Assembly: GCA_964476665.1 (NCBI GenBank)
Contig: CAYZBO010000005.1
Location: forward strand, 1 to 60,592
Direction of reading: 5' to 3'
Length of the DNA: 60,592 nucleotides
Origin: an uncultured Chryseobacterium sp.
Lineage (GTDB): Bacteria; Bacteroidota; Bacteroidia; Flavobacteriales_F; PHOS-HE28
In this document: positions 17,007-57,576 of the stretch, piece by piece
How positions within the stretch are numbered: position 1 is the first letter of the stretch
Layout of the letters: each line of letters opens with the position of its first letter
Program-made: the position numbers and the translations under genes
The notes under the pieces: model-generated
Told to the model about the DNA's origin: nothing
Database searches by the model: none
Seen by the model: the letters and a program-made list of their open reading frames with translations, nothing else

Positions 17007-17015
17007 ATTGTCCAT
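17007..17015. repeat. Right copy of the target-site duplication ATTGTCCAT
   Basis: Matches 15672..15680 exactly. Confidence 0.85.
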
Positions 17016-17037
17016 TTATTCTCTTTTCCCATATTTG
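17008..17037 (+). promoter_or_regulatory. Candidate Bacteroidota-type promoter: -33 TTG, 19-nt spacer, -7-like CATATTTG
   Basis: TTG at 17008-17010 lies inside the TSD, and CATATTTG is at 17030-17037. The element is about 100 nt upstream of the ATG at 17136. This is a pattern match only. Confidence 0.3.
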
Positions 17038-17135
17038 AGTCATTCAGCCGCAACGTTGGAACAGGCCCACACCATCTCGATAACACGATGCGGCCACATC
17101 TGACGATGGGGTTCACGGCAGGATCTGTTGCGCCT

Positions 17136-25236: not shown

Positions 25237-25239
25237 TTC

Positions 25240-27624: not shown

Positions 27625-27632
27625 TTTAATTC

Positions 27633-29525: not shown

Positions 29526-29607
29526 TGGACACCGCCGTTGGCGCGGCGAAGCTTGCCAGGTGCTCAGTGGAGCTGGTGAACGGAGGGCCACAGTAGCACC
29601 TTGCGGC

Positions 29608-30084: not shown

Positions 30085-30097
30085 GCTTCGAGTTCTC

Positions 30098-31966: not shown

Positions 31967-31992
31967 TATCTTCCGCACAGCAAACGAGAACC

Positions 31993-32748
31993 ATGGCCAC
32001 ATCGATCACCGCCGTCATCGTCGATGATGAGGACGCTCCGAGGAACCTCCTGATCAACCTTTTGGGACGCAGGCATCCGGAAGTCCAACTGCTCGGAACC
32101 GCCTCCGATGTCCCCTCCGGCATCGAGCTCATCCGCCGCACCGCCCCCCAAGTGCTCTTCCTCGATATCGAGCTGAAGGACCGGACGGGCTTCGACCTGC
32201 TCCGCACGCTGGGCGATCGGCGCCCGCACGTGATCTTCACCACGGCCCATGAGAGTTACGCCGTGAAGGCCATCCGCTTCAGCGCGCTCGACTACCTGCT
32301 GAAACCCATCGATGCGCAGGAGCTGGCCGATGCCATTGCCAAGGCCATGGAGGCCTCGCGCATCGCGGAGAAGCCGCCGATGGTGGACATGCTGCTCAAG
32401 AATATCGACCGCTCCATCGGCGACCGCGTGATCGCGCTGCCCGTGAGCGACGGACTGGAACTGGTACATGTGAACGAGATCGTGGTGTGCGGGTCGGACT
32501 CCAACTACACCACCCTGTACATGCGTGACGACAAGCGCCTGGTGATCTCACGCACCCTGAAGGAGTTCGAGGACCTGCTCGGGGAACAGGAGTTCATCCG
32601 GGTACACAACTCCTACCTGATCAGCAAGAAGCACATCCGGAAATACATAAAGGGCGAGGGTGGCGAGGTGATCATGTCCAACGGCATGAACATCGCGGTA
32701 TCCAGGCGAAAGAAACAGGAGCTTATGGATGCGCTGGTGCGCCTCTAA
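31993..32748 (+). CDS. LytTR-family response regulator (REC plus LytTR DNA-binding domain)
   Basis: The REC domain shows AVIVDDE, LLFLDIEL(K)D and VIFTTAH. The LytTR domain shows VHVNEIVVCGSDSNYTTLYM..DKRLVISRTLKEFEDLL....FIRVHNSYLI. A GTG at 31963 overlapping the upstream stop is an alternative start. Confidence 0.9.
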   Translation: MATSITAVIVDDEDAPRNLLINLLGRRHPEVQLLGTASDVPSGIELIRRTAPQVLFLDIELKDRTGFDLLRTLGDRRPHVIFTTAHESYAVKAIRFSALDYLLKPIDAQELADAIAKAMEASRIAEKPPMVDMLLKNIDRSIGDRVIALPVSDGLELVHVNEIVVCGSDSNYTTLYMRDDKRLVISRTLKEFEDLLGEQEFIRVHNSYLISKKHIRKYIKGEGGEVIMSNGMNIAVSRRKKQELMDALVRL

Positions 32749-34673: not shown

Positions 34674-34779
34674 AGGGGGCGCGGCCTTCGCACCCCCCCT
34701 AACCTTTGTTCTATTGCCTTGGGGCCTGCGCCCGACTTAGGTTGCCGTGCCGTTCGCTTGCCCCGGACGGTATACGACC

Positions 34780-40700: not shown

Positions 40701-43266
40701 CCAGGGCGGTGACTGCGACGACACCGACGAGACCATCAACCCCGGCGCCGCCGACCCCTGCGATACCATCGACCAGGACTGCAGCGGCGGGCCCGTGCTC
40801 AGCACCTGGTTCGTGGACAACGACGGTGACGGCTTCGGCAACGACGCCACCACCACGCAGGATTGCACGCAGCCCACCGGGTACGTGGCCATCAGCGGGG
40901 ACTGTGACGATACCAACAGCGATGTCTTCCCCGGCAATGGCTGCAGCAACTGCACGCTCACCGAGCAGGCGTGGCTCGCTGCGAACCAACAGACGCTGCT
41001 GGCGGCCGTGAACGACTGCACGCTGCAATGCTTCGGCGACCCCACCTGCATCGCCAGCTGTCTGCAGAGCAGCGGTGTACCACTGGGTGCCGTGTGCCTC
41101 AGCTGCATCGATGGCTACCTCCTGTGCGTACAGGACAACTGCAGTATCCAATGCCTCAACTCACCGGAATTCTGCTTCAGCTGCCAGGTGCAGGAGGGCT
41201 GTCTGGCCGCGCTGGCCAGCTGCATGGGCCAGGTGGATGCCGATGGCGACGGTTGGTGGGCCGGCAGCGACTGCGACGACAGCAACGGCAGCATATTCCC
41301 CGGGGCCACCGAGGTCTGCGACGGCGTGGACAACGATTGTGACGGCGATACGGACGAAGGGCTCAGCGTGACCTACTACACCGATGCGGACGGCGATGGC
41401 TTCGGCCTGGACGGCACGGAGATCACCGGCACCTGCGACCAACCGCCCGGCACGGCCACCCAGGGCGGCGACTGCGACGATGCGGACGACACGGTGTTCC
41501 CCGGCGCGCCGGAGCTCTGTGACGGCATCGACAACGACTGCAACGGCGAGACCGACGACAACGCGGGCACGCTCTACTACACCGATGCCGACGGCGATGG
41601 CTACGGCGATGATGCCACGGGCCAGTTCTCCTGCACGCCCATCCCCGGCACGGTGACCCTGGGCGGCGACTGCAACGATGCCAACGACGCCATCAACCCT
41701 GGCGCGGCCGACCCCTGCGATGCCATCGACCAGGACTGCAGCGGCGGACCGGTGCTCACCACCTGGTACCAGGACAACGACGGTGATGGCTTCGGCAACG
41801 ATGCGGTGAGCCTCAGCGATTGCGTGCAGCCCGTGGGCTACGTGGCGCAGCAGGGCGACTGCGACGACAGCAACAGCGACCTCTTCCCGGGCAACGGTTG
41901 CAGCACATGCAGCGTGACCGAGCAGCAGTGGCTCGCCACCAACCAGCAGACCCTGCTGAACGCGCTGAACAGCTGCGCCCTGCAGTGCCTCACGGGCGAT
42001 CCGGGGTGCATCAGCAGTTGCCTGCAGGATGAAGGGGTGCCGCTGGGCGCCTTCTGCCTCACCTGCGTGGAGGACTACGTGCTGTGCTGGCAGGGCAACT
42101 GCCCGATCCAATGCCTCGGCAGTGAGCAGGCCTGCCTGGAATGCCAGCTGCAGAGCGGCTGCTTCGCCACCTTCGCCAGCTGCCTGGGCATGGTGGACGC
42201 GGACGAGGATGGCTGGTGGGCCGGCAGCGACTGCGACGACAACGATCCTGCGGTGAACCCGGGCGCGAGCGAAGTGTGCAACGGGGTGGACGATGACTGC
42301 GACGGCACCGTGGACAACAACACCGGCGATGCCTACTACCCCGATGCGGACGGCGATGGCTTCGGCGACAGCGATGGCATGGTGCTGTCCTGCACCCCCG
42401 TGCCCGGCTTCATCACACAGGCCGGCGACTGCAACGACAACGACGCCACGGTGAACCCCCTGGGTACGGAGACCTGCAACGGGCTGGACGATGACTGCGA
42501 TGGCGAGGTGGATGAGGATTGCGTGCTGCTGGACCTGAAGGTGCTGCTGGACGGTCCGTACAGCCCCAGCACCGGCCTGATGAACGACGGCCTGCGCGCC
42601 CTGGGCCTGGTGCCCACCACGGAGCCCTACAGCGCGCTCGGCTACAGCTACACGGGCGGCAGCGCCACTACGACATCGGCTGTCGTGCTGGCCACCACCG
42701 GTCCGGATGCCATTGTGGACTGGGTGGTGGTGGAGCTGCGGGCCGGCACCGACCCCACCAGCGTGGTACACAGCCGCTGTGCCCTGCTGCAGCGCGACGG
42801 TGATGTGGTGGACCTCGACGGCATCAACCCGCTGAGCCTGCAGGCTGCGCCGGGCGATCTGTACGTGGCGCTGCGCCACCGCAACCACCTGGGGGTGATG
42901 ACCGCGGTGCCCTTCCTGCTGAGCAACACGGTCACCACGATCGATCTGCGCACTGCGGCGGAGGCCTGCTTCGGGGCCGATGCGCGGCGCAGCGTGAGCG
43001 GTGCCTTCCCCGCCACCACCTTGTGGACCGGCGATGTGGACCGCAACAACGTGGTGCGCTACACCGGCCCCGCCAACGACCGCGACCCCCTGCTGCAGGC
43101 CATCGGCGGCTCGGTGCCCACCAACACCACCACCGGCTACCTGCCGCAGGACGTGAACATGGACGGCACCGTGAAGTACACCGGTCCGGCCAACGACCGC
43201 GACCCCATCCTGCAGACCGTGGGCGGCAGCGTGCCCACCAACACCCGCAGCGGCACCCTGCCCTGA
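34780..43266 (+). CDS. Giant secreted multidomain protein. Domain order is S8 (subtilisin-like) peptidase, MopE-like DNDCDG metal-binding motif arrays, LNR-like Cys modules, a thioredoxin-like domain, Cys-rich helical modules, and the shared C-terminal module.
   Basis: The ATG at 34780 gives the signal peptide MTHLYLRSCARLFLALCLLLCTLPSFAQQ. The S8 triad contexts are GIVDA, EHGTMVAGV and GNSFAVPHVAGA. About 17 copies of C(D/N)G.D(N/D)DCDG..DE..(W/Y)Y.DADGDG(F/Y)GD are present. Confidence 0.9.
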   Translation: MTHLYLRSCARLFLALCLLLCTLPSFAQQSWRPGEVLLLLRKDARPEAVRTELQRRLPTAVVLKEMTPLGRDSRYHLVRLDGTGIDEPTLERLLAQAPGVEATSLNYVLELRAQPNDALYADQWGMAAIDVEPVWNITTGGSMANGRRIAVGIVDALVQTTHPDLADNISPASTYAGEGSEHGTMVAGVVGATGNNGIGVSGVNWDVDLVPLGYGGTMAGAISGFEGALSLREDFTNSAGTEGALVVAVTVSWGLLGTSCGFGYAIFEDLGNAGVLAITAGPNEPVDIDVVPDFPSGCPNSNNIAVTCIGPNGENPFAVGNSTIHLQAPGLEIPTTSVNGGYVVTDGNSFAVPHVAGAVALLYSAPCPAFAQLVMTDPAAAAQLVKSAILQGGAPVPGGNNITITGRQLNVLGAYQMLMAQCIQTCTDLTMTFTPTEGTVAEAVITGPQGNVVTTASGPVLQGCWEDGCYQASFSAAGGAPVGGSWSVTDGAANVVDSGTSANGQVSFSFGTIVPGCTTPNSGNFDPGANCNDGSCCPGDIVRVKVLAEDLVSEGTAQVTITVGGSVVHDGPVAITAGADPEFGVGYAVGTVELCAPDGCMSIAVTSGSTPLHEVGFVYIGNDGPIPFQLADGHLGAVGNAGGLEVCDGQDNDCDGEVDEDFRWYADADGDGFGDPATLQIACSPVPGAVQNGIDCNDADATITAVGSACDDGDPNTLNDFVRSNCQCAGIDQGSCPPGEIPDCNGNCAPADWLGDGLCNNGSMEWQGNLIVFTCAELNNDGGDCFDPCGPEICDGLDNDCDGEVDEDHTWYTDADGDGFGDDATATVSCLPPLGAVLVGGDCDDGNNAVHPGATEACDTIDNDCDGAVDEDFIWYEDADGDGLGNDATVQFSCTPLSGFVHVGGDCNDSDAGIAGVGAACDDGNPATVYDIVRTDCQCQGFIQGTCPPGQIEDCNGNCAPVFWLADGLCDDGSSMWEGNLIFLNCPGLSYDMGDCSIPCLPETCDGLDNDCDGAVDEDFVWYTDADGDGYGDDATAQASCVPVPGAVQVAGDCDDANAAVQGGVVLYVGSAFGITSGTAHYVITQGATTHEGDMALTDTGADYAAGSVSVCLGAGCFSVQVTPNDVPLGEVAVVQMDLNPGQSGGFPVADGFFGSATPPASELCDGLDNDCDGEVDEDFRWYADADGDGFGDASTMQISCTPLPGFVQVVGDCNDADPGLTAIGMACDDGDPNTVNDTVRPDCSCLGLLPGECPPGEIADCNGNCAPAEWVGDGFCDDGSFEHNGNFIFFNCPEFGNDGGDCGGSGCVTEVCDGLDNDCDGEVDEDFVWYTDADADGFGDFATATISCTPLVGAVQLGGDCDDNDPATYPGAPEGCEGVDRNCDGIVPGANPNDVYSPDWTATATTGQSVNLYDLLAQGKTVVLDLFAAWCPPSQQMLTANFLQDWNAHMGPDGTDQIRIVAIAVDQSAGSVTPFIEEAQWPVIVQDGESFGPLYNAIGMYDNAVPTLLMICPDRSVTMLYPQPDDLPYTGLFNYDPAAGLALVNERCGCRSTCVANIGCMDPNSCDYDPDATCPGPCAQAQEWFADNDGDGVGGSSLGTACTQPPNSAPTGGDCDDDNASVQQGFTLIVLTNDPGDFGTAHYVIQHGGGILEGDLDLPQETEGIGELQVCIANGCYTISISQNDVLLWEEAYLLLPQAPEEPVVFSTFDGYQGGASAEVCDGIDNDCDGTVDEGCGNCSDADRAWILANQATIEGIVGNTFLSCGATEQCLLDALLAGTPLPESCATCVAQRYVCILESCLAQCVGGFGAPPCVECVNATCNAAYFACAGFTDNDGDGVVAELDCDDSDPNVFPGANEICDTIDNDCDGLIDETPTTYYADLDGDGWGDENNTVEGGCSPPNGATSQVGDCDDSDPDIYPGAPEICNGIDDDCDGEVDDNAGIAYYVDADGDGYGDINSEQFSCTPIPGLITQGGDCDDTDETINPGAADPCDTIDQDCSGGPVLSTWFVDNDGDGFGNDATTTQDCTQPTGYVAISGDCDDTNSDVFPGNGCSNCTLTEQAWLAANQQTLLAAVNDCTLQCFGDPTCIASCLQSSGVPLGAVCLSCIDGYLLCVQDNCSIQCLNSPEFCFSCQVQEGCLAALASCMGQVDADGDGWWAGSDCDDSNGSIFPGATEVCDGVDNDCDGDTDEGLSVTYYTDADGDGFGLDGTEITGTCDQPPGTATQGGDCDDADDTVFPGAPELCDGIDNDCNGETDDNAGTLYYTDADGDGYGDDATGQFSCTPIPGTVTLGGDCNDANDAINPGAADPCDAIDQDCSGGPVLTTWYQDNDGDGFGNDAVSLSDCVQPVGYVAQQGDCDDSNSDLFPGNGCSTCSVTEQQWLATNQQTLLNALNSCALQCLTGDPGCISSCLQDEGVPLGAFCLTCVEDYVLCWQGNCPIQCLGSEQACLECQLQSGCFATFASCLGMVDADEDGWWAGSDCDDNDPAVNPGASEVCNGVDDDCDGTVDNNTGDAYYPDADGDGFGDSDGMVLSCTPVPGFITQAGDCNDNDATVNPLGTETCNGLDDDCDGEVDEDCVLLDLKVLLDGPYSPSTGLMNDGLRALGLVPTTEPYSALGYSYTGGSATTTSAVVLATTGPDAIVDWVVVELRAGTDPTSVVHSRCALLQRDGDVVDLDGINPLSLQAAPGDLYVALRHRNHLGVMTAVPFLLSNTVTTIDLRTAAEACFGADARRSVSGAFPATTLWTGDVDRNNVVRYTGPANDRDPLLQAIGGSVPTNTTTGYLPQDVNMDGTVKYTGPANDRDPILQTVGGSVPTNTRSGTLP
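35128..35871 (+). other. S8 peptidase catalytic domain within the giant protein
   Basis: Asp (VGIVDALV), His (GSEHGTMVAGVVG) and Ser (DGNSFAVPHVAGAVALL) occur in the canonical order. An I9-like propeptide segment lies upstream. Confidence 0.8.
38968..39345 (+). other. Thioredoxin-fold (TlpA/AhpC-TSA-like) domain with a monothiol WCPPS motif
   Basis: GKTVVLDLFAAWCPPSQQM...IRIVAIAVDQS...VPTLLMICPDRSV has a redoxin-like layout. WCPPS is encoded at 39070-39084. Confidence 0.6.
42520..43263 (+). other. Shared C-terminal module, copy A (about 248 aa)
   Basis: VLLDGPY...GL.P..EPY.ALGY...AIVDWVVVELR...ALLQRDGDVVDLDG...YVALRHRNHLGVMT...GDVDRNNVVRYTGPANDRDPLLQ.IGG...DVNMDGTVKYTGPANDRDPILQTVGG. It aligns along its full length to copies B and C. 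Confidence 0.85.
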
Positions 43267-43274
43267 TCGCGGCC
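43033..43274 (+). repeat. 242-bp highly similar tract (3-prime end of the module plus 8 nt past the stop), copy 1
   Basis: Aligns to 52126..52367 at a constant offset of 9093 with few substitutions. The identity continues through TGATCGCGGCC. Confidence 0.85.
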
Positions 43275-43350
43275 TCTCCCCCGTTGATCGATGTACGCCG
43301 CCCGGCCCTTGTGGTCGGGCGGTGTGCGTGGGGGGGTGAGATCTCACCTG

Positions 43351-43374
43351 CCCGACCACGTCTTTTTCACCTGT
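43351..43374 (+). promoter_or_regulatory. Conserved intergenic motif CCCGACCACGTCTTTTTCACCTGT (copy 1)
   Basis: The same 24-mer, with 1-2 changes, occurs at 52383 and 59705. A -7-like TTCTTTCG ends at 43402, exactly 45 nt after the C of CACGT as in the other copies. The ATG is at 43406. Confidence 0.5.
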
Positions 43375-43405
43375 TGCAGGAGGGGGCACCCCGCTTCTTT
43401 CGCAG

Positions 43406-44029
43406 ATGATGCAAGCCAGGAACGGACCATCCATCCTCATCCTCAGCAACGAGCGCCTGTTCGCCGAGGGTTTGAAAGCCCTGCTGGAGCGTCGGCGGGG
43501 ATACGTGGTGGAGCTCATCACCACCATGGATGACCTGCTGCACCAGGTGCAGGAGCGCACCGCAGACCTGGTGCTGGTGGACCGGTCCCTGTTGCAGATG
43601 CACATCCTCCCCCTGGAGCGGATGCTGCGCAATGGACGGAGCACCGGGAAGTACATCGCCCTGTGCGCGAACCAGCAGGCAGGTCTCCTGCCAACGTGGA
43701 AGGAAATGGGCTATGCGGGAGCCGTCAAGCGCGGGGACAGCGCGGCCGACCTGTTCCGCACCGTGGAGGCCGTGCTTGCCGGCCGGGACCCGACACCTGC
43801 GGACAGCACCGCACACATGCACCCGAACGGGTCGTCCATGCCGCTTACACGCCGGGAAGCCGAAGTGGTGCTGCACCTGGCCAACGGGCTGTGCAGCCGC
43901 CTGATCGCGCTTCAGCTGGGGATCAGTCCCGCCACGGTGTTCACGCACCGGCGCAACATCGCCCGCAAGCTCGGCACGCGCAGTGCCGCCCACCTGATCA
44001 GCGAAGCACAGAACATGGGCCTCATCTGA
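43406..44029 (+). CDS. LuxR/NarL-family response regulator (atypical REC plus LuxR-type HTH)
   Basis: The C-terminal HTH is LTRREAEVVLHLANGLCSRLIALQLGISPATVFTHRRNIARKLG. The N-terminal REC-like domain has DLVLVD (a candidate phosphoacceptor) but SNE in place of the usual DD acidic pair. Confidence 0.85.
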   Translation: MMQARNGPSILILSNERLFAEGLKALLERRRGYVVELITTMDDLLHQVQERTADLVLVDRSLLQMHILPLERMLRNGRSTGKYIALCANQQAGLLPTWKEMGYAGAVKRGDSAADLFRTVEAVLAGRDPTPADSTAHMHPNGSSMPLTRREAEVVLHLANGLCSRLIALQLGISPATVFTHRRNIARKLGTRSAAHLISEAQNMGLI

Positions 44030-44316
44030 AACCGCCTTCCTGATGGAACGACCCGGCGCACCACAGCTCACCCCCGAACCATGAACGGATCGCTCCCCGC
44101 CCCCATGGTCGCTCTCATCAGCGCGTGCCGGACCGGGCCCCCTGTGGAGCATGCATGCATCCCAAGCGCTGCAGCTGCCGAACAGGCTCCTGCGGGCACG
44201 CACCATGCCCCGGCATGCGCGGACAAAAAAGCGGCCGCTGTAGTGCGCATACCTGAAACTGGGTATGCCTGATCATCTGAAGGACACCAATTTGCCCATC
44301 CCCAATTCATGCCAAC

Positions 44317-47300
44317 ATGACCCGTTCCTTGTTCCTGATCGCAGCGGTGGCCCTCGTGCTGGCCGGAAATGCCCAGACCAACGTCTCCGGCACCATTGCC
44401 AGCAACACCACCTGGACCACCACCGGCAGCCCTTACACCGTTACGGCCCAGCTCACCATCAACGCCGGGGTCACCCTCACCATCGACCCCGGGGTGCAGG
44501 TGCTGATGAACAGCACCAGCATCCAGGTGAACGGAACGCTCGATGCCGATGATGTGGATTTCGCAGCCAACGGTAGCCCCAACGGCTGGAACATCAGCGT
44601 GAACAACGGCGGGCTGGCCACGCTCACGGATTGCAGCATGGCGAACGGCAATCAGATCGGCGTGTCCGTCGGTGGCACTGCCACGTTGAGCGGCACCGGA
44701 CTCACGAACCTGGCCATCAATTCCGGGGGGACCATCAATATGACCGGTGGTGCTGTGACCAAACCGGGCAGCACCGCTGTGACCATTTCGGGCTCTGCCA
44801 CCTTCAATGGAACCTCCATCTCGAACAGCACCACAGCGGTTGCAGTGAACGCGGGTACGGCATCTTTCACCGGCGTTATCGTGGGTGCCAGCACCAATGC
44901 CTACACCCTCTCGGCTGGCACCACCACCATCCAGAGCCTCACCATCAGCGGCACCACCTACCCATTCACCTTCAATGGTCCCGCTGCGTTAGTGAACAAC
45001 GGTGGACACAGCATCAGCGGCAACACCTTCAATGTGGCCCGCACCGCCTTCAACACGCTGTCGACCAACTGGACAATGCCCTCGCTGCCCATCCCATGGT
45101 ACATGGAAAGCAGCAGCACGTTCACGGTGAACAGCGGCATCACATGGACCATCGCCTCCAACAACATCATCAAGCTGGGGGACAGCAAGCAGCTGGCCAT
45201 CAATGGCAAGGTGGTGGCCAACGCGGCCGCGGGTGAGAGCATCGTGTTCACCAGCTTCCGCGACGACAACCAGGGGGGCGACAGCAACGGCAACGGCTCG
45301 GGCAATGCGCCCAGCGTGGGCATCTGGCAGGGCCTGCGCTTCAGCAACCTGGCCGACCCCACCAGCTCCCTCACCCGCTGCACCTTCTTCTTCGCAGGCG
45401 AGTCCACCACCCGCGGCGCGGTGGACGTGAACACCATCGCCCCCAGCATCGTGGGCTGCACCTTCCAGCTGAACCGCTTCGGCATCACCCTGCGCAACGG
45501 CAGCCAGGCGCTGATCCAGGACTGCACCATCGGCAGCAGCACCAGCACCCCCATCGCCATGACGCTGGACTGCAACCCGCAGTTCGTGAACAACACCTTC
45601 TCCTTCATCGACAACCAATACGACGCCATCGGCATCCTCACCACCACGCTCACGGCGGACAACACGCTGGTGCAGCGCAATGTGACCGGCATCAACAACG
45701 TGACCTACGTGTTGCTTGGCACGATCGAGATCCCCGCAGGCCGCACGCTGAACATCGTGCCCGGCATCGTGATCAAGGCCACGAGCAGCCGCGACCTCAT
45801 GGTGGCCGGCACCCTGAACATGCTGGGCACCGCCGGGGAGCCGATCACCTTCACCAGCATCGCGGACGACAACGTGGGCAACCCGAACGACACCAACAAG
45901 GATGGCAACCTGAGCCTGCCTACCACTGCTGCGAACAGGCCTGGTGGCATCGGCATCAATACCGGAGCCACGGTGGCCCTGGAGCATGTGAACCTGAGGT
46001 TCTGCTCTTCGAGTACAACGGTCTTTGGCGTTGGATCATGGAGCCCCTTCATCAATTCTTGGATGGTCTTCGACCTCGGCGGAAGCGTCAGCTTGCAGAA
46101 CTGCCTGCTCAGCGATGGCACCTACGGCTACCAAGGCTCCGAGACCTCGGCCGCGGTCTTCACCAACGTCACCTTCCAGAACCTGTCGCAGGCACCCATC
46201 TCCATCCAGGCGCCGGCCAACCCCAGCTTCACCAACGTGGCCTTCACCAACGTGGGCCTGCGTGCACTGGGCATCCTGGGCGGCACCATCACCGTGAACG
46301 GATCGCTGCAGCAGCGCACCCTCGCGGGCTTCACCAACATCACGCAGGTGCTGTTGGGCAACCTTACCGTGGCGGCCGGCACCTACCTGGAGGTGCAACC
46401 CGGCGTGGTGTTGAAGGTAGGGCAGAGCGCAAGTTCCATTGAGGTGAACGGTGGCTTCCGCCTTTTTGGGACCGCAGGGCAACCAGTGGTGATCACCGAC
46501 TGGCGCGATGATGCCTACGGCAATCCGGCCGACACCAACGAGGATGGAGGCAACACAAGCCCGAACCCGGGCAACTGGGTCGGTATCCGGTACAATGCCG
46601 CGGCCGATGATGCTTACAATTCTGTGCAACACACGATCATCCGCTTTGCGGGGCAGGGGAGTTGTGATGCGGGTGCACGGGGGGCGGTAACCTACGTGAA
46701 TGCTGGCGGCACGATGAACAACAGCACCATCAGCAGCGGCATGTTCGGTCTGGTCTTCATCGGCAACTCGGACCCCGCCATCAGCACCATCAGTATCGAC
46801 AACTGCCGGATCGATGCCTTCGCGCAGTCCTGGGAAGCCACTCCGGCATTGAACAACATCAGCCTGGGCAATCAGAACGGCAGCAATGGGATCCGCCTGC
46901 TCAACGCCACCATCACCAGCGACCTCACCATCGGTCCCGGCTTCATCAACGGGGTGGGACCGGTGAGCTACCTATCCTCTGAACTCACGGTCGCCACTGG
47001 AGCGACCCTCACCATCCTGCCCGGGACTAACTTCAAATGGGGATCGCAGAACTACCCCAACTGGAGTTCCTGTGGATCGTCTTGTGTGTACTGGACCATC
47101 AATGGCGCCTTGGTCGCGGTGGGCACTTCGGGCCAACCCATCGTCTTCACTTCCTTCAAGGACGATTCGGTGGACGGGGATACCAATAACGACGGCAACT
47201 CTTCGACCCCCCAGGCAACCGATGGTACCAGAATAGTCTTTACGAGCACGTCCAATGCGGCATTGAACCAACTTCGACATTGCCAGTTGAGGTATTCTTC

Positions 47301-49785: not shown

Positions 49786-49809
49786 GGCACGGCCACAACA
49801 GCCCCTGCC

Positions 49810-52359
49810 ATGAAGAAGCTCCTCACCTTCCTCGCCGCCGTGGCCGTGCTGGCCACGGCGCGCGCCCAGACCGTGAACATCGCGGCGGGCACCATCACCG
49901 GCCAGTTCCCCGGCGATGTGTTCGACCTGCCCATCACGGTGAACACCGACCTGACCGGCCTGAACGTGTTCAGCTTCCAGCTGAGCGTGAGCCGGCCATC
50001 GTTCTGCACCTTCCAGTCCATCATCGTGGAGCCGGGGGACCTGCTGCAGGCCTGGGGTACCCCGGCGGCCAGCGCGGGCACCAACGTGCTGGTGAGCGGT
50101 GCCGGTGCCGTGCCCCTGAGCGGCAGCGGCGTGCTGTTCCGTATCCGCTTCCAGGCCGTGACGAACGGCACCGCCACGGTATCCTTCACACCCACGGCCA
50201 GCAACTTCCTGAACGAGGGTACACCGGGGCTCGCCTTCATCAGCGGTTCGGTGCAGGTGCAGCCCTTCCCCACCATATCGGTGAGCCCCAGCTCGGCCGT
50301 GCAGGTCATCGGGGAGAGCCTTAGCCTGAGCGCGTCAGGCGGCCAGGCGCCCTACACCTTCAGCACGCTGCACCCGGCGGTGGGCACGGTGAGCGGTAAC
50401 CAGTGGAACGCCGTGGGCCAGGGCTTGGGCAAGGCCCAAGCCAATGACGCCAACAGCTTCAGTGGTGCCACCAGCGGCTGGTACGATGTGCGCACCTTCC
50501 AGATGGGCATCGGCAACGCCACGGGGCCGGTGACGCAGGAGCTGCGCGTACCGATCACCATGCAGAACCCCTCGGGCGCATCGTTCTTCTCCGGCGAGCT
50601 GCAGGTGAACGCCAGCACGCAGATCCAATTGAGCGGCGTGGATGTGCAGGGCTATTTGCTGGAGGGCGCCACGCTCTTCACCAACACGGCAGGAGGCAAC
50701 GTGCAACTGGCCTTCAGCGGCACAACGGCCATCACACCCGCAGCGGCCACGGACACCTTGTGCTGGCTGAAGTTCACCAAGGTGAACACTGCCAGCGGTG
50801 GCTTCTACTCGCTGAGCTATGGAAGTGCCTTGTTCGATGAGCTGCTGAACGCGCGCTTTGGCACGGGCAACGTCAACTTCCAGGCGCTGCCCAACATCAC
50901 CATCTCGCCCAACACGGCCACGCGGCAGGCGGGGCAGACGCAGCAGTTCACGGCATCGGCCGCTGCGGTGCCGCCGCTCACCTGGGGCGTGACGAACCCG
51001 GCGGTGGGCAGCGTCAACGCCAGCGGCCTGTTCACCGCCCTGAACGGCGGCACCACGCAGGTGACGGTGACGGACGCCATCGGCAACACCGCCACGAGTG
51101 GCACCATCAGCGTGCACGATGCGGTGCTGCAGATGGTGAGCGGGCAGGGGCCGGTGGGCGGGCAGGTTTGGGTGCCGGTGGTGCTGGGCCCCTCGGTGAA
51201 CAACGAGCAGGTGTTCTCCTACCAGCTCACCTTCGGGTTCAATGCGTCGCAGTTGTCATTCCAGGCCTGGGAGATCAACGGCACGTTGAGCAATGGATGG
51301 ACGCCGCTGGTGGTGCCGGGCACGGGGCAGGTGACGGTGGTGGCGGCGGGCGCCACGCCCTTCCAGCCGGGCGGGCTCATCGGCTTCCTGCGTTTCCAGC
51401 TGCAGCCGGGGTTCAACAACGGCCAGACATCGAGCGTCACCAGCGTGAGCCGCCTGTTCAACGAGGGCGATCCGGTGGTGATCCACCAGAACGGCACGGT
51501 GACGGCCAGCAACGGCGCATGTCCCACCAGCGGCTGCACCAACCCTTACGCCTGCAACTACGACCCGGCCGCCACGTGCGAGGATGGGAGTTGTGCGTTC
51601 AACCTGCCCTGCGCGGTGGGGGTGCAGGTGCGGGCCATGTTGGAAGGACCTTACGCCAGCGTTCCCGGCACCATGAACGATGCGCTGCGCAGTGCGGGGC
51701 TCATCCCCACTGCGGACCCCTACCCGGCACTGGGCTATGTGCACGTGGGTGCTGGCGGTGGTACCGTGGCACCAGCGGTGTTCAGCGTGGCGGGCAACAA
51801 TGCCATCGTGGACTGGGTTGTGCTGGAGTTACGGTCCGCAGGTGATGCCGCTGCGATCGTGGCCACACGGTCCGCCCTGGTGCAACGCGATGGGGATGTG
51901 GTGGCGCTGGACGGGGTCTCTCCCGTATCGTTCACCATGCCGCCGGGCAACTACTTCGTGGCCCTGCGGCACCGCAACCACCTCGGAGTGATGACCGCTG
52001 CACCGGTGACCCTGGGCGCTGTGCCGGCCGTGGTGGACTTCACTTCGGGCTCCACCACCACCTACGGCAGCGACGCTCAACGAGCGATCACCGGCACCTT
52101 CCCCACACGTGCGCTCTGGGCCGGCGATGTGGACCGCAACAACGTGGTGCGCTACACCGGCCCGGCCAACGACCGCGACCCCCTGCTCCAAGTCATCGGC
52201 GGCAGCGTGCCCACCAACACCACCACCGGCTACCTGCCGCAGGATGTGAACATGGACGGGGTGGTGCGCTACGTGGGCGCTGCCAACGACCGCGACCCCA
52301 TCCTGCAGACCGTGGGCGGCAGCATACCCACCAACACCCGCTCCGGCACCCTCCCCTGA
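49810..52359 (+). CDS. Scaffoldin-like secreted protein: three cohesin-like modules interleaved with two Big_2 Ig-like domains, then the shared C-terminal module
   Basis: Signal peptide MKKLLTFLAAVAVLATARAQ. The Big_2 domains are ISVSPSSAVQVIGESLSLSASGG.APYTFS and ITISPNTATRQAGQTQQFTASAA....WGVTNPAVGSVNASGLFTA. The gap to the upstream gene is 24 nt. Confidence 0.9.
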   Translation: MKKLLTFLAAVAVLATARAQTVNIAAGTITGQFPGDVFDLPITVNTDLTGLNVFSFQLSVSRPSFCTFQSIIVEPGDLLQAWGTPAASAGTNVLVSGAGAVPLSGSGVLFRIRFQAVTNGTATVSFTPTASNFLNEGTPGLAFISGSVQVQPFPTISVSPSSAVQVIGESLSLSASGGQAPYTFSTLHPAVGTVSGNQWNAVGQGLGKAQANDANSFSGATSGWYDVRTFQMGIGNATGPVTQELRVPITMQNPSGASFFSGELQVNASTQIQLSGVDVQGYLLEGATLFTNTAGGNVQLAFSGTTAITPAAATDTLCWLKFTKVNTASGGFYSLSYGSALFDELLNARFGTGNVNFQALPNITISPNTATRQAGQTQQFTASAAAVPPLTWGVTNPAVGSVNASGLFTALNGGTTQVTVTDAIGNTATSGTISVHDAVLQMVSGQGPVGGQVWVPVVLGPSVNNEQVFSYQLTFGFNASQLSFQAWEINGTLSNGWTPLVVPGTGQVTVVAAGATPFQPGGLIGFLRFQLQPGFNNGQTSSVTSVSRLFNEGDPVVIHQNGTVTASNGACPTSGCTNPYACNYDPAATCEDGSCAFNLPCAVGVQVRAMLEGPYASVPGTMNDALRSAGLIPTADPYPALGYVHVGAGGGTVAPAVFSVAGNNAIVDWVVLELRSAGDAAAIVATRSALVQRDGDVVALDGVSPVSFTMPPGNYFVALRHRNHLGVMTAAPVTLGAVPAVVDFTSGSTTTYGSDAQRAITGTFPTRALWAGDVDRNNVVRYTGPANDRDPLLQVIGGSVPTNTTTGYLPQDVNMDGVVRYVGAANDRDPILQTVGGSIPTNTRSGTLP
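49873..50265 (+). other. Cohesin-like module 1
   Basis: VNIAAGTITGQFPGDVFDLPITVNTDLTGLNVFSFQLSVS...SGVLFRIRFQAVTNGTATVSF. Confidence 0.6.
50488..50883 (+). other. Cohesin-like module 2
   Basis: VTQELRVPITMQNPSGASFFSGELQVNASTQIQLSGVDV...DTLCWLKFTKVNTASGGFYSLSY. Confidence 0.5.
51106..51510 (+). other. Cohesin-like module 3
   Basis: GGQVWVPVVLGPSVNNEQVFSYQLTFGFNASQLSFQAWEI...GGLIGFLRFQLQPGFNNGQTSSV. Confidence 0.5.
51622..52356 (+). other. Shared C-terminal module, copy B
   Basis: AMLEGPY...GLIPTADPYPALGY...AIVDWVVLELR...ALVQRDGDVVALDG...FVALRHRNHLGVMT...GDVDRNNVVRYTGPANDRDPLLQVIGG...DVNMDGVVRYVGAANDRDPILQTVGG. Confidence 0.85.
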
Positions 52360-52367
52360 TCGCGGCC
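52126..52367 (+). repeat. 242-bp highly similar tract, copy 2
   Basis: See 43033..43274. Confidence 0.85.
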
Positions 52368-52382
52368 ACCAGGAACACATGA

Positions 52383-52407
52383 CCCGACCACGTCTTTTTC
52401 ACCTTGT
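52383..52407 (+). promoter_or_regulatory. Conserved intergenic motif CCCGACCACGTCTTTTTCACCTTGT (copy 2), with a downstream -7-like TTGATTTG
   Basis: CACGT starts at 52389 and TTGATTTG is at 52427-52434, so it ends at +45. TTG at 52404-52406 gives a 20-nt spacer. The downstream CDS starts at 52540. Confidence 0.5.
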
Positions 52408-52539
52408 CATGGCCCGCTCCTGCATGTTGATTTGTCCCGCTGTGAACGCCGTACCACCCACCGCATGCCGCTCCCGCGGTACGCATGGATGATGCGGAGC
52501 GCACCGCACCCGAAGTAGAACGTTCAACCTCCCTTGGAA

Positions 52540-55038
52540 ATGTTCCGCAACACGACCCCGCAACGCCTCGGCCGCCTCTCCCTTCCTGCGCTGCTGGCCA
52601 CCCTCGGCGCCCTCTTCGGCCCGGAGGCGAGCCACGCCCAGCGGGTGCTGCCCTTCGGAGAAGGCAGCACAGGAGGCTTGGGCGCGTATGACATGATCGT
52701 GCACGAGGACCGGCTCTACGTCGCCGGGCTCTACACCTCCTTCCTGGGCAACCCCCGCCGCAACATCCAGGCGTGGGATGGAAGCACCTTCCACGACCTG
52801 CCGGGCGCCTTCACCAACGCACCCCAACGCGTGCGCGACCTGGCGGTGTTCAACGGTGAGGTGATCGCCACGGGGAACGAAGCCACGTTCGGACACGTGG
52901 CGCGCTGGGACGGTGCTGCCTGGCAGACCATGGGCAGCGGCCTGGCCGCACAAGGCCGCGCGCTCTGCATCCACAACAACGAACTCTACGCGGCCGCGAA
53001 CGATGGTTCCGTGAGCCGGTGGGACGGCGGCGCCTGGCAGCCCGTGGGGGCGGCCTTCAACGGGGCCGTGGCTTCCCTGGAGTCGCACAACGGCGCGTTG
53101 TACGCCGGCGGCGCGTTCGACTTCGATGTGGACTCCACCCAGCAATTGCGGCGGCTGGTGCGATGGACCGGTGCCGTCTGGGAGGAAGTGGGCACCGGCT
53201 TGAACGCATCCGTGTCCGACATGCTATCCACCCCCGAGGGTCTCGTGGTGACCGGCTCCTTCAGCACCGCAGGCGACGGCACCCTGCAACTGCCCCGGTG
53301 GACGGTCTATGATGGCGCCACGTTCTCACAGCCTACGGACTCCATTCCAGGTACGCAGATCGAAGCCGTATGCGCGCATCCCGATGGCGGCATCCTGCTC
53401 GGCAACAGCTCTGCTGCGCTTTGGGTGAACAACAACGAGGTGCGCGCCATCCGCTACCGATCGCTGCGCGCGGCAGTCAACTTCGGCGGCGAACGGCTGA
53501 TCGGTGGCTTGAGCAGTATCTCCTACTCCGATGTGGGCATTGTGGGTCGCCTGCTGGATGGCAACGACCTGGACCACCTGAACGTGAACCAGCTTAAAGC
53601 CGACGCCACCCCGTCCACGAACCTGTTCTTCGACCCGTGGAATAACAGGCCAGGATTCGAAGCGCCACAGGGTAGCGGGGTGTATGCCATCTACTCCGCT
53701 TCTCCTTGGGTCACCGGCTTCCACAACGGTACGATGCACAGCGCGGCCCCCACCTACGACAACCAACCCGCACCCACTGCGGGGCCGCACGCTGCGGTGA
53801 TGGATGCCGATTTCTACGAGCGCTACTACCAGGTATGGAAGCTGGACCAGGCCACCATCGCCCAGCATGCCCAGCAATGGGACCAGAGCGGCTATGTGAT
53901 GCCGTATGCCATCACCACCTGGCCGGGCAATGGCAATGTGGACAACGGCGAGCCGGCCCGGTTGGCGCCCTTCAAGGACCTGGACAACGACGGGCTGTAT
54001 GAACCAGCCAGCGGCGAATACCCCTTGATCCGCGGCGACCAGGCCGTCTATTTCATCCTCCACAGCGAGCAGGATGCCGACAGCCTACATCCGCCCATGC
54101 AGTTGGACCTGCATGTGATGCACTACGCCTACAACACGGCGGGCAATGCGGACCTGCAGCACACGGTCTTCACCAACTACCGCATCGTGAACCGCGGCGA
54201 CCTGGACTTTACCGGCGTTCGCTTTGGCGCCTTCACCGACATGGATCTGGGCTATGACAGCGATGATCTTGCCGGCTGCGATTCGCTGCTCGGGCTGTTC
54301 TTCAACTACAACGGCGATGGGCTGGATGAGCCCGGCTTCGGGTCGCCCGGTTATGGTGCGAACATACCCGCACAGGGCGTGCTCTTCCTGAACCAGGCCA
54401 TGAGCGCGCACAACGCCATTTGTCGTTCAGCGGGCTTCGTTACCCCTTTGGAGGATGCAATCTATGGCACCTTTCAAGGAGCCCCCTTCGCCCAACCCTT
54501 GAGCCCACTGGACCACCCCACACACTTCGAGTACCCAGGCGGGGCATGGGTGGACCAACTCAACAGCTGCTCCGGTCGGTATGCCGTGGGCTCCTCCGGT
54601 CCCTTCACGCTCAACGCCGGCGACACCTTGTGCGTGGACCTGGCCTACCCCTGGGCACGTGCGGCCAGCGGCGATCCGCTGGAAAGCCTGGAAGCGCTCC
54701 GCACCCGGGCGCAGGCGGTGAAGAACTGGTACCAGGCCCAGGCCTGGGATTGCGGGGAGGTGGAGGACATCATCACCCGCCTCGATGATATGGGCAGCAC
54801 AACCGGGCTGAAACTCCATCCCAATCCGGCGAACAGCTGGGTGGTGGTGGAGCGCGGTGAATGGAATGGCCCAGCGAGATTCCACTTGATGGATGTCTCG
54901 GGCCGTTCATTGCTGGACCAAAGCGGCAACGGGCCATCGGTGACGCTTGATCTGGCCGGCATCGCCCCCGGCAGCTACCTCGTGGTGGTGGACGATGGCA
55001 CACAGCGCCACACCCGCACCCTGGTGATCACCCACTGA
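52540..55038 (+). CDS. Secreted protein with N-terminal Kelch/propeller-like repeats and a T9SS type A sorting domain
   Basis: ATG at 52540 gives MFRNTTPQRLGRLSLPALLATLGALFGPEASHAQ. The (R/A)WDG.(A/T)W...G motif is repeated. The C-terminus is LKLHPNPANSWVVVERG...GSYLVVVDDGTQRHTRTLVITH. The track start at 52534 is a TTG. Confidence 0.85.
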   Translation: MFRNTTPQRLGRLSLPALLATLGALFGPEASHAQRVLPFGEGSTGGLGAYDMIVHEDRLYVAGLYTSFLGNPRRNIQAWDGSTFHDLPGAFTNAPQRVRDLAVFNGEVIATGNEATFGHVARWDGAAWQTMGSGLAAQGRALCIHNNELYAAANDGSVSRWDGGAWQPVGAAFNGAVASLESHNGALYAGGAFDFDVDSTQQLRRLVRWTGAVWEEVGTGLNASVSDMLSTPEGLVVTGSFSTAGDGTLQLPRWTVYDGATFSQPTDSIPGTQIEAVCAHPDGGILLGNSSAALWVNNNEVRAIRYRSLRAAVNFGGERLIGGLSSISYSDVGIVGRLLDGNDLDHLNVNQLKADATPSTNLFFDPWNNRPGFEAPQGSGVYAIYSASPWVTGFHNGTMHSAAPTYDNQPAPTAGPHAAVMDADFYERYYQVWKLDQATIAQHAQQWDQSGYVMPYAITTWPGNGNVDNGEPARLAPFKDLDNDGLYEPASGEYPLIRGDQAVYFILHSEQDADSLHPPMQLDLHVMHYAYNTAGNADLQHTVFTNYRIVNRGDLDFTGVRFGAFTDMDLGYDSDDLAGCDSLLGLFFNYNGDGLDEPGFGSPGYGANIPAQGVLFLNQAMSAHNAICRSAGFVTPLEDAIYGTFQGAPFAQPLSPLDHPTHFEYPGGAWVDQLNSCSGRYAVGSSGPFTLNAGDTLCVDLAYPWARAASGDPLESLEALRTRAQAVKNWYQAQAWDCGEVEDIITRLDDMGSTTGLKLHPNPANSWVVVERGEWNGPARFHLMDVSGRSLLDQSGNGPSVTLDLAGIAPGSYLVVVDDGTQRHTRTLVITH

Positions 55039-55056
55039 CACAAGATCCCGGCACCC

Positions 55057-57576
55057 ATGTTCCGCCTTGCCCGCCTGCTTGCCTCCTGCACTGCCTTCGT
55101 CGCCATGTCCGATGTGCTGCCGCAGTGCACCAGTTGGTGCGTGAACACCGGCACCGCATACATCAGCCAAACGCCTTCCTGTTTTGGCGAGAGCTACGCG
55201 ATCACCATCGCTGGTGAGTATAGCTGGAACAGTTGGTCGGGAGGGACCAGCGGGACATTCAGCATTGGCCCGGGTACCTACACCATCCAGTTCATCAGCA
55301 ACTGCTACACCCAGACACCCTACCAGTATTGCTGTCAGCAGTGCTACGATGAGTTGGGGAACCTGTACTGCTGCCTATCCTGCACCGCCTGCGAACAATA
55401 CAACTACACCAGCGAGCACAGCGTCACCATCATCATACCCGAGTATCCCTGCACCATGGACGGTAGCGCCGCAGGGCACGCACCATCCGTGTTCGGGTGC
55501 AGTGATGGCTCCATTACCTATAGCGGCACCACCAATGCCTGCAACGGTTTCTTGGTCTATGGACCCAATGGATGGCAGGGGCAAGGCAATGGCACCATCA
55601 CCGGGCTCGCGGCGGGCCAATACACGTTGTACTTCTACAGCGATCCCGGGGGCTGTTACGATGAGGTGCTCGTCACCGTGCCCTCCGGCCCCTGCACGCT
55701 CAGTGCCGCCATTTCCGCCGAGGATGCCTCCAGCACTGTCTGCGCGGATGGCTCCATATCCGTGACCGGGAACTCCGGGACCTGCCTCCCATGGTCCCTC
55801 TGGATAAGCCGGGACGGCACGGAACAGTTCTGGGGGAGCTTTGCGGATGGCGAGACCGTCACGATCCCGTCGCTGCTGCCCGGCAACTATTCCGTGGGCC
55901 TTGAGCACAGCGATGGGGAGGGCACCTGCCAGCAGCAGTACCCGGTCAGCATCACCTCACCCGGCTGCCTCTTCCCCTTCACCACCGCCACCGTGGAAGC
56001 AACCGCCGGTGGTGCCTGTGCCGATGGGCGCATCGTGCTCACCAACAACACCGGCTGCGACCAACTGGTGAGCATCCATGCTGCGGATAGCACCACCTTG
56101 ATCGGCACGTACTGGCATTCCTGGTATGCGAACGATACCGTGCCCGCCCTCTTCAACGCCGGCACCTACTTGGTGCGGGCGTTCAGTCAGGCCTACGACC
56201 CCTTCACACAACAGACCATTACATGCGACCAATGGAGCAGCGTGGTGGTGGGTGAACCCTGCCAGCTGGATGCCTCGGCATGGACCACGGCGCCCTCCAG
56301 CCTGGCCTGTTCGGATGGGTCCATCCACCTTACCAGCGCGATGGGCGGCTGTTTCCAGCAGCAGGCACAGCTCTATCGCCTTGGGGGACCATCCCCTGTT
56401 CAGAACGCGCAGGCGGAACAGGGCGACACCATCCGGTTCTCGGAATTGATGCCCGGCACCTACGTGCTCCACACCCAGCAGTTCCCCTGGATGCCGGGGG
56501 GATGCGAACAACGGGACACCCTCACCGTGGCCAATCCCGGCTGCCTCTTCCCCTTCACCACCGCCACCGTGGAAGCAACCGCCGGTGGTGCCTGTGCCGA
56601 TGGGCGCATCGTGCTCACCAACAACACCGGCTGCGACCAACTGGTGAGCATCCATGCTGCGGATAGCACCACCTTGATCGGCACGTACTGGCATTCCTGG
56701 TATGCGAACGATACCGTGCCCGCCCTCTTCAACGCCGGCACCTACTTGGTGCGGGCGTTCAGTCAGGCCTACGACCCCTTCACACAACAGACCATTACAT
56801 GCGACCAATGGAGCAGCGTGGTGGTGAACTGCGCGGCGCAGGTCTCGCTCAGCGGTCGCGTATTGTTGGAGGGACCGTACGACCCAGGCAGTGGCCTGAT
56901 GCATGATCACCTGCGCATCGCCGATCTGATCCCTGCTACGGAACCATACACGGCCCTGGGCCACGTGGACGTTGCTACAGACGGCTCGGTCGGCCCCAGC
57001 GTGTTCGCCACGACGGGGAACAACGCCATCGTGGACTGGGTGCTGCTGGAACTGCGGGACCCCACCGATCCCGCGCTCATCCGGGCCAGCCGTGCGGCAC
57101 TGGTGCAGCGCGATGGGGACCTGGTGGCAGAGGACGGCTTCTCCCCTGTTCCCTTGCCCCTGCCAGCGGGATCATACCTGGTGGCCGTGCACCATCGCAA
57201 CCACCTGGGGTGCATGACCGCCCAAGCGGTCGCCATGGACCTCCAACCCGTTCCGGTTGACTTCACCAGCCCCGCGCTGATCACCCACGGCACCGATGCC
57301 CGCAGGGCCCATGGCAGTACCATGCTCCTGTGGGCCGGCGATGTGGACCACAACAAGGTGGTGCGCTACACCGGCCCGGCCAATGACCGGGACCCCTTGC
57401 TGCAGACCATCGGTGGCGCCGTGCCCACGGCCACGCTCACCGGCCAATACAGGGCTGAGGACGTGAACCTCGACGGTGAGGTCAAGTACGTGGGGCCCGC
57501 GAACGACCGCGACCCCATCCTGCAAAGCATCGGTGGCACCACCCCCACCGCCACGCGAACAGCACACGTACCGTGA
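55057..57576 (+). CDS. Cys-rich SprB-repeat-like surface protein ending in the shared C-terminal module
   Basis: Repeated ~90-aa units each begin with a C.DGSI/C.DGRI motif (GCSDGSITYSG, VCADGSISVTG, ACADGRIVLTN, ACSDGSIHLTS), which resembles SprB repeats. The gap to the upstream gene is 18 nt. Confidence 0.85.
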   Translation: MFRLARLLASCTAFVAMSDVLPQCTSWCVNTGTAYISQTPSCFGESYAITIAGEYSWNSWSGGTSGTFSIGPGTYTIQFISNCYTQTPYQYCCQQCYDELGNLYCCLSCTACEQYNYTSEHSVTIIIPEYPCTMDGSAAGHAPSVFGCSDGSITYSGTTNACNGFLVYGPNGWQGQGNGTITGLAAGQYTLYFYSDPGGCYDEVLVTVPSGPCTLSAAISAEDASSTVCADGSISVTGNSGTCLPWSLWISRDGTEQFWGSFADGETVTIPSLLPGNYSVGLEHSDGEGTCQQQYPVSITSPGCLFPFTTATVEATAGGACADGRIVLTNNTGCDQLVSIHAADSTTLIGTYWHSWYANDTVPALFNAGTYLVRAFSQAYDPFTQQTITCDQWSSVVVGEPCQLDASAWTTAPSSLACSDGSIHLTSAMGGCFQQQAQLYRLGGPSPVQNAQAEQGDTIRFSELMPGTYVLHTQQFPWMPGGCEQRDTLTVANPGCLFPFTTATVEATAGGACADGRIVLTNNTGCDQLVSIHAADSTTLIGTYWHSWYANDTVPALFNAGTYLVRAFSQAYDPFTQQTITCDQWSSVVVNCAAQVSLSGRVLLEGPYDPGSGLMHDHLRIADLIPATEPYTALGHVDVATDGSVGPSVFATTGNNAIVDWVLLELRDPTDPALIRASRAALVQRDGDLVAEDGFSPVPLPLPAGSYLVAVHHRNHLGCMTAQAVAMDLQPVPVDFTSPALITHGTDARRAHGSTMLLWAGDVDHNKVVRYTGPANDRDPLLQTIGGAVPTATLTGQYRAEDVNLDGEVKYVGPANDRDPILQSIGGTTPTATRTAHVP
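55960..56250 (+). repeat. Perfect 291-bp direct repeat, copy 1
   Basis: Compared base by base by eye with 56536..56826 (offset 576); I found no difference. Confidence 0.9.
56536..56826 (+). repeat. Perfect 291-bp direct repeat, copy 2
   Basis: See 55960..56250. Confidence 0.9.
56857..57573 (+). other. Shared C-terminal module, copy C (most divergent)
   Basis: RVLLEGPY...DLIPATEPYTALGH...AIVDWVLLELR...ALVQRDGDLVAEDG...LVAVHHRNHLGCMT...GDVDHNKVVRYTGPANDRDPLLQTIGG...DVNLDGEVKYVGPANDRDPILQSIGG. Confidence 0.85.

Follow-up and report, generated by a model that had tools for sequence, protein, structure and literature searches.

A C-terminal sandwich and dockerin-like tail on secreted proteins of uncultured Flavobacteriales, in the slot of type 9 secretion sorting domains

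Three secreted proteins with one C-terminal module

We analyzed a 60,592-nucleotide stretch of DNA (hereafter the window; G+C content 61%) from contig CAYZBO010000005.1 of an uncultured Chryseobacterium sp. (assembly GCA_964476665.1, placed by GTDB in Flavobacteriales_F, PHOS-HE28), in which three large proteins share a C-terminal module. An initial annotation of this DNA had described the module as an uncharacterized domain of about 240 residues, standing in place of a type 9 secretion system (T9SS) sorting domain on three otherwise unrelated proteins. The three copies are present at the intervals then proposed: their translations are collinear (248, 245, and 239 residues), contain all the motifs quoted at the time, and are 55–63% identical to one another (tblastn, E-values between 1e-75 and 1e-103); the same search gave no further copy in the window. 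When delimited with a hidden Markov model (HMM), the modules span 42523–43263, 51616–52356, and 56842–57573, so that the last module codon directly precedes the stop codon in all three genes, and all three proteins start with a Sec-type signal peptide. The host genes and the two parts of each module copy (HMM limits) are as follows:

34747..43266, + strand: gene 1, 2839 residues, with signal peptide, Peptidase_S8 domain, 15 MopE metal-binding stretches, and C-terminal module
42523..43023, + strand: module copy 1, beta-sandwich (“X-like”) half, modeled by AlphaFold2 with a predicted local distance difference test score (pLDDT) of 92–99
43024..43263, + strand: module copy 1, twin dockerin-like segments, ending ...NTRSGTLP right before the stop codon
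49810..52359, + strand: gene 2, 849 residues, with signal peptide, three cohesin-like segments alternating with Big_2 domains, Cys-rich linker, and C-terminal module
51616..52116, + strand: module copy 2, beta-sandwich half
52117..52356, + strand: module copy 2, twin dockerin-like segments, 83–100% identical in amino acids to copy 1 here
55057..57576, + strand: gene 3, 839 residues, with signal peptide, a passenger with weak Pfam matches only (weak fn3_3), and C-terminal module
56842..57330, + strand: module copy 3, beta-sandwich half
57331..57573, + strand: module copy 3, twin dockerin-like segments

Outside the module the three proteins are indeed unrelated, the first combining Peptidase_S8 with MopE stretches, the second Cohesin with Big_2, and the third giving only the weak fn3_3 match; its former label as an SprB-repeat protein has to be dropped, as no such match was obtained at E ≤ 0.01. 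The three cohesin-like segments of gene 2 are singly weak matches to Pfam Cohesin (E-values of 5e-4 to 8e-3), and the whole protein scores above threshold. Its Cys-rich linker, CPTSGCTNPYACNYDPAATCEDGSC, lies directly before the module (window about 51523–51600), and a stretch 64% identical to this linker was found in an unrelated module protein at another locus (L031). Long antisense open reading frames (ORFs) overlie the module genes on the minus strand (41161–43656, 51829–52380, and 55957–56964); these are not genes but shadow ORFs cast by high-G+C coding sequence, and those over the module appear “conserved” across 75 loci only because the module itself is conserved.

The module is not confined to this window. 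A word-indexed database search retrieved 1,445 relatives, and an exhaustive profile search 12,586 representatives of 50%-identity clusters at E ≤ 1e-3 (4,107 at E ≤ 1e-30), while a scan of one genome per species yielded at least 565 module loci, the best 80 of which served as our locus set for comparisons. These best 80 loci all belong to metagenome-assembled genomes (MAGs) of uncultured Flavobacteriales or Bacteroidota, many from activated sludge, in which one genome holds several loci; none of the 80 comes from a cultured organism. The number of representatives and the several copies per genome across an uncultured Flavobacteriales lineage refute the earlier suggestion that the module is specific to this locus.

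The position of the module within proteins is strict, with about 96% of copies at the very C-terminus and ending R-x-x-Q-L-P, and the C-terminal preference first noted in the window extends to the whole family. The end of the module coincides with the end of the protein in 146 of 150 profile matches and 115 of 120 word-search matches, and with the end of the ORF in 105 of 110 cases across the 80 loci and the window. The exceptions are truncated or frameshifted, or are among a few database proteins with extra C-terminal residues or tandem partial copies; in one of these (P0238, 1083 residues) three tandem modules, each lacking the last ~25 residues, are present and none is terminal. The end itself has the consensus R(-6), Q(-3), L/V(-2), P(-1), the final proline being found in 257 of 257 counted database proteins. 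The window copies, which end ...R-S-G-T-L-P or ...R-T-A-H-V-P (43243–43263, 52336–52356, and 57553–57573), are unusual at position -3, where they carry T or H and 252 of these 257 proteins carry Q. Separate HMMs for each half found neither the sandwich nor the twin segments alone in the 80 loci. A divergent copy at one locus (L033, 29% identical) was discarded as a frameshifted pseudogene.

The passengers ahead of the module range from 11 to 2,983 residues (median 562). At the small end are minimal members of ~315 residues (P0017, P0088, P0085, P0104, and P0305), made of a signal peptide, an N-terminal domain of ~65 residues ending ...ILTQGFQQP, and then the module. Some of them are named “hemagglutinin protein” by NCBI, with no NCBIfam model behind the name. 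A second minimal type (P0010 and P0021) has SNIFSGGNGRGDVA repeats ahead of the module.

Relationship of the module to dockerins

No named family was found for the module in Pfam (24 members, E ≤ 10), in NCBIfam (E ≤ 1), or by sequence profile search of the PDB, and literature searches found no description of a sandwich-dockerin unit. The same tools did detect the bona fide dockerin of a neighboring gene (see below). The two tandem C-terminal segments reported initially are real: in the window modules their starts are 39 residues apart and each contains an invariant Y-x-G-x-x-N-D-R-D-x-x-L. More broadly, each segment runs from D-x-[DNT]-x-[ND]-[GN] through N-D-R-D to a predicted helix (H189–195 and H227–234).

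The link to known domains comes through a distant subfamily, found with a self-written probe sequence that was built around the sandwich motifs with the conserved positions kept. This probe matched 106 real database proteins, some of them from Ignavibacteriae and Melioribacteraceae MAGs. In these proteins the sandwich recurs (VDWVLVELR ... HRNHLxIMS), two dockerin repeats of canonical form come next (GDxNxDGxIxxxD), and the sequence closes with ...QVP. Pfam Dockerin_1 (PF00404) scored above threshold in five of the eight members tested, and the subfamily profile matched solved dockerins in the PDB (2vn5_B, E-value 3.7e-5), including the X-module-dockerin (XDoc) of CipA (2b59_B, E-value 1.4e-3). 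In profile-profile comparisons with hhalign, the window family and the distant subfamily aligned with 100% probability (E-value 5.7e-49) over 252 columns, which take in repeat 1 and the beginning of repeat 2. The twin segments alone aligned to the dockerin half of the subfamily with 87% probability (E-value 3.9e-6), both repeats being in register with a 4-residue insertion in each, and that dockerin half in turn aligned to four true dockerins with 85% probability (E-value 6e-6). Transitively, via this subfamily, the twin segments are thus homologous to recognized dockerins. The insertion (Y-x-G-x) follows loop position 8/9 and precedes the acidic residue that aligns with D12. Two further observations concern the subfamily itself. 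The ~65-residue N-terminal domain of the minimal members also precedes the sandwich in P0305, a probe match whose gene call ends within the sandwich. On a 149.8 kb contig (JGI 3300056625, L081), many subfamily gene calls begin at a conserved internal Met of the sandwich, and the resulting “proteins” of ~200 residues are likely C-terminal fragments of larger BNR-repeat proteins, because the contig is split into many short ORFs, probably by indel errors.

The predicted structure is consistent with this assignment. An AlphaFold2 model built with 123 sequences (pLDDT 93.9, predicted template modeling score 0.91) shows a sandwich over about residues 1–165, then two strand-loop-helix repeats (pLDDT 82–96 over the repeats); it replaces an earlier run with 30 sequences in which the twin segments were modeled at pLDDT 36–76. 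Among the top six Foldseek matches of the module in the PDB, five are type II XDoc chains (4u3s_B, 4wi0_B, 2b59_B, 4fl4_C, and 5g5d_B), all weak matches (probability 0.84–0.91, target-normalized template modeling score 0.46–0.62, root-mean-square deviation 5.6–8.4 Å), and the poorer 30-sequence model gave the same top matches. Transitive profile homology and fold together bear out the initial description of the twin segments as dockerin-like. The term “uncharacterized” stands in part: no named family covers the sandwich or the whole unit, but the C-terminal third is, as judged from these profiles, a divergent dockerin and thus a known kind of domain.

The two halves of the module also differ in how they vary within and between genomes. 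When 99 full modules were grouped by genome, identity in the sandwich half was 51.9% within genomes vs. 50.5% between, and in the twin half 70.9% within vs. 59.8% between, with p-values that are indicative only because within-genome pairs are non-independent. All 19 genome-specific columns (within minus between agreement ≥0.2) lie in columns 163–241; the sites correspond between the two repeats and fall around K/R-Y-x-G-x and downstream of the helix. Dockerins of one species are known from cellulosomes to share sequence traits that fit a common cohesin partner, and the pattern of the twin half is, by this analogy, what would be expected for tails fitting one genome-specific partner. In the window, copies 1 and 2 are 83–100% identical in amino acids over the twin half and 37–63% over the sandwich. 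Their DNA identity is 82–92% in the dockerin-like half (43024–43263 vs. 52117–52356) and 51–62% in the sandwich, a pattern that suggests gene conversion, or else very strong selection, acting on the final ~80 codons only.

Copies 1 and 2 agree at 82–92% of DNA positions over their final ~70 codons, which could also be taken to mean that the shared tails reflect recent duplication or gene conversion in this contig only, with no common function. However, the members number in the thousands, are spread over many genomes, and share conserved motifs, a confidently predicted fold, and a strict position; sharing through recent local duplication only is refuted by the wide distribution of the family, and we regard an origin without common function as exceedingly improbable. 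The shared tail is a real and highly non-random observation.

The minimal members raise another alternative, a role as calcium-dependent lectin or adhesin (“hemagglutinin”), in which the module would bind polysaccharide or other cells and not a protein of the same cell. The NCBI name of some ~315-residue members, the modeled beta-sandwich with its putative calcium sites, and the existence of members with little beyond a signal peptide and the module would all fit. Yet the name is unsupported by any NCBIfam model, and carbohydrate-binding modules are not tied to the extreme C-terminus and in Bacteroidota usually precede a T9SS tail. Such a role would also leave unexplained the terminal position, the exchange of tails described below, and a homogenization that affects the twin half only, within a genome. 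We consider it improbable.

Exchange of the module with T9SS tails

Other secreted proteins of the window do end in T9SS tails, as initially reported, with one clear case and three just under the Pfam threshold. CHU_C, the type B tail, is clear in 17004–22910, and the organism therefore uses a T9SS; Por_Secre_tail, the type A tail, falls just under threshold in 13266–15554, 44317–49785, and 52534–55038. Two of these genes are listed here, and the one at 44317–49785 is described with the cohesin gene below:

17004..22910, + strand: PKD protein of 1968 residues with a CHU_C type B T9SS tail
52534..55038, + strand: protein of 834 residues with a type A T9SS tail at its end (23 bits, slightly under threshold), between two module genes

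The passengers of the module are of the same kinds. In our set, 61 passengers carry DUF5122 propellers, GEVED, reprolysin, M43, M36, S8, PKD, SprB, MopE, MAM, or GBD_T9SS_assoc domains, a repertoire that is the usual T9SS cargo. Moreover, closely related proteins can end in one tail or the other. At one locus (L042), adjacent genes for Porphyromonas-type peptidylarginine deiminases (PAD_porph) encode passengers that are 67% identical, one followed by the module and the other by a Por_Secre_tail (31 bits, above threshold). Among homologues of the window cohesin protein, the close ones (P0247 and P0191) carry the module and more distant ones (P0384, 47 bits; P0385, 29 bits) carry Por_Secre_tail (PF18962). 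Finally, a syntenic pair of genes for a beta-helix giant and a cohesin protein has the module tail at one locus (L082) and a type A tail at another (L084). These observations support the view that the module occupies the slot of the T9SS C-terminal domain (CTD) in related proteins. The initial proposal that it stands in place of a T9SS sorting domain is upheld in this sense, the module being obligately C-terminal where paralogues and syntenic orthologues have a type A CTD.

Could the module then be, above all, a new T9SS C-terminal secretion signal, recognized by the T9SS or a PorV-type shuttle, with its dockerin ancestry incidental? The exact C-terminus with its invariant end, the swap with type A CTDs, the classic T9SS cargo, and the presence of type A and type B CTD proteins in module genomes all speak for it. 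T9SS signals unrelated to type A are known as well, and the type B signal requires more than 200 residues for secretion (PMC10202324). The trait that the module shares with type A tails is its extreme C-terminal position on Sec-exported cargo; in sequence, however, neither the type A CTD (Por_Secre_tail; PF18962/TIGR04183) nor the type B CTD (CHU_C; PF13585/TIGR04131) matched the module in Pfam (E ≤ 10) or NCBIfam (E ≤ 1), nor did any other NCBIfam model at that cutoff. No T9SS CTD appeared among its Foldseek structural matches, and the unit is homologous to a docking device. Clustering of neighbors across the 80 loci, with antisense shadow ORFs removed, yielded no conserved neighbor family of module genes, and thus no PorP/SprF-like neighbor of the kind adjacent to type B genes, PorP not having been searched for specifically. 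We therefore hold a primary role as a T9SS signal to be somewhat unlikely. In this reading, the partner co-evolving with the twin segments would be a T9SS component. It overlaps with the docking interpretation developed below, and both could hold.

A probable docking tail and its possible partner

The interpretation that we prefer, at a probability of roughly 0.55, is that the module is an XDoc-like docking tail which replaces the T9SS CTD and binds many secreted proteins to one shared partner. The unit would be bipartite and XDoc-like in build, with a beta-sandwich of ~165 residues followed by a two-repeat dockerin, each putative calcium loop of which would carry four inserted residues (Y-x-G-x) ahead of the invariant N-D-R-D. 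It would be borne by hundreds of different Sec-exported passengers in this Flavobacteriales lineage, in the slot that a T9SS CTD takes in their relatives. After export, the dockerin-like half would bind a single partner, common to the tails of one genome and specific to that genome, in the simplest case a cohesin-like receptor on the surface; through this non-covalent bond the passenger would stay on the cell surface or within an assembly of several proteins. Docking or anchoring is the best reading because the module is obligately C-terminal and its twin segments are dockerin-like. Direct support comes from the dockerin-bearing relatives, the fold, the strict terminal position, the exchange with T9SS tails, and the concerted evolution of the dockerin half; beyond these, we infer that the loops bind calcium, that the partner is of the kind named, and that the passengers are exported by the T9SS. 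The earlier suggestion of an alternative sorting, anchoring, or docking domain is thus largely borne out, but its restriction to this locus fails. A more specific version would make the sandwich-dockerin unit a T9SS C-terminal signal of a fourth class, one that routes cargo through the T9SS and then docks it, non-covalently and in a calcium-dependent manner, to a genome-specific cohesin-like receptor; this version we put forward tentatively, as possible but doubtful.

Several points weigh against docking. Pfam Dockerin_1 has no match to 24 window-family members even at E ≤ 10, and the dockerin assignment relies on the intermediate subfamily because direct hhalign comparison of the twin segments with four true dockerins reaches only 3% probability, though in the same register. 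The insertion breaks the canonical 12-residue calcium loop (D1, N3, D5, D12). The Foldseek matches have E-values of 0.015–0.08, not significant alone, with nothing under 1e-3, and the comparison within genomes suffers from the non-independence mentioned above. The window cohesin protein has only 22 detectable homologues, and no cohesin gene was found beside module genes in the 80 loci; no partner could thus be identified, nor was a regular association of the module with cohesin genes seen. Last, a dockerin alone leaves the crossing of the outer membrane in a Gram-negative cell unexplained.

Upstream of the window cohesin gene lies the following gene:

44317..49785, + strand: beta-helix protein of 1822 residues with a bona fide dockerin (about 48820–49050) and a type A T9SS tail, the conserved upstream partner of the cohesin gene

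Its dockerin matches PDB dockerins with E-values down to 1e-8. A two-gene cassette in which a beta-helix protein of ~1800 residues is directly followed by a cohesin/Big_2 protein of ~800 residues is conserved between the window (44317–52359) and two other loci (L082, 1208–9229; L084, 2593–10349); the Pfam matches on record for the first cassette protein of L084 are Cohesin and FlgD_ig. Possibly, the cassette represents a true cohesin-dockerin pair within a Flavobacteriales genome. Elsewhere in the window (22939–32748), three TPR-His_kinase sensor genes (LytS-type) in tandem and one LytTR response regulator adjoin secreted-protein genes, and similar TPR-His_kinase genes neighbor module genes in 10 loci, the window included.

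Among the closest known systems, the clostridial type II XDocs (CipA of C. thermocellum and ScaA of A. cellulolyticus; PDB 2b59, 4u3s, and 5g5d) likewise consist of a C-terminal beta-sandwich followed by a two-repeat dockerin and are the best, if weakly scoring, structural matches of the module. As in CipA, the module in the window also ends a protein that carries several cohesins. Its dockerin half is homogenized among the copies of a genome, which is what a common cohesin partner would lead one to expect. Unlike XDocs, it belongs to a Gram-negative host with a T9SS, has a larger sandwich (~165 residues) with no sequence relation to X-modules, carries a 4-residue insertion in its calcium loops, and is found on hundreds of unrelated passengers instead of scaffoldins only. 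With type I dockerins (PF00404) it shares two tandem loop-helix repeats starting G-D-x-[ND]-x-[DN]-G and a profile link through the PF00404-detected subfamily, but PF00404 itself does not match it, its repeats are ~39 residues apart and not ~22–35, Y-x-G-x-x-N-D-R-D replaces the canonical loop end, and its dockerin is always fused to the sandwich. T9SS CTDs of types A, B, and C (ChiA-type) resemble the module in their extreme C-terminal position, their Sec-exported Bacteroidota cargo, and their kinds of passenger, and type A tails are interchangeable with it in paralogues and orthologues; the module, however, has no sequence or fold similarity to them, and a type A CTD is only about one third its size. 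A cellulosome-like system has been predicted in Ca. Stygibacter (Cloacimonadota), where signal-peptide enzymes with C-terminal dockerins, including an S8 peptidase, are accompanied by a cohesin scaffoldin linked to a T9SS tail (PMC8542988). That organism belongs to the same Fibrobacterota-Chlorobiota-Bacteroidota superphylum, and both systems are described in silico only; there, canonical dockerins are combined with a scaffoldin bearing a T9SS CTD, whereas here a divergent sandwich-dockerin tail is found on the cohesin protein itself.

T9SS cargo is currently recognized by three tail types. The module is a fourth, found on thousands of cargo-like proteins of a lineage that is common in activated sludge; as it has no name in any database, secretome predictions for these bacteria miss such proteins. 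The unit is new, a very large unnamed variant of the dockerin-type domain, and its profiles indicate that the tail descends from a cohesin-dockerin system. This descent raises the idea that dockerin-type docking may serve Gram-negative bacteria in surface display at large, and not in cellulosomes alone. The 19 genome-specific positions offer a concrete handle for a partner search and, should binding be confirmed, the unit might find use as an orthogonal tag for surface display. If true, the reading as a fourth signal would amount to Gram-negative cohesin-dockerin surface display of tens of cargo proteins per cell, and throughout a lineage of wastewater Flavobacteriales docking would take the place of sortase-like attachment to lipopolysaccharide.

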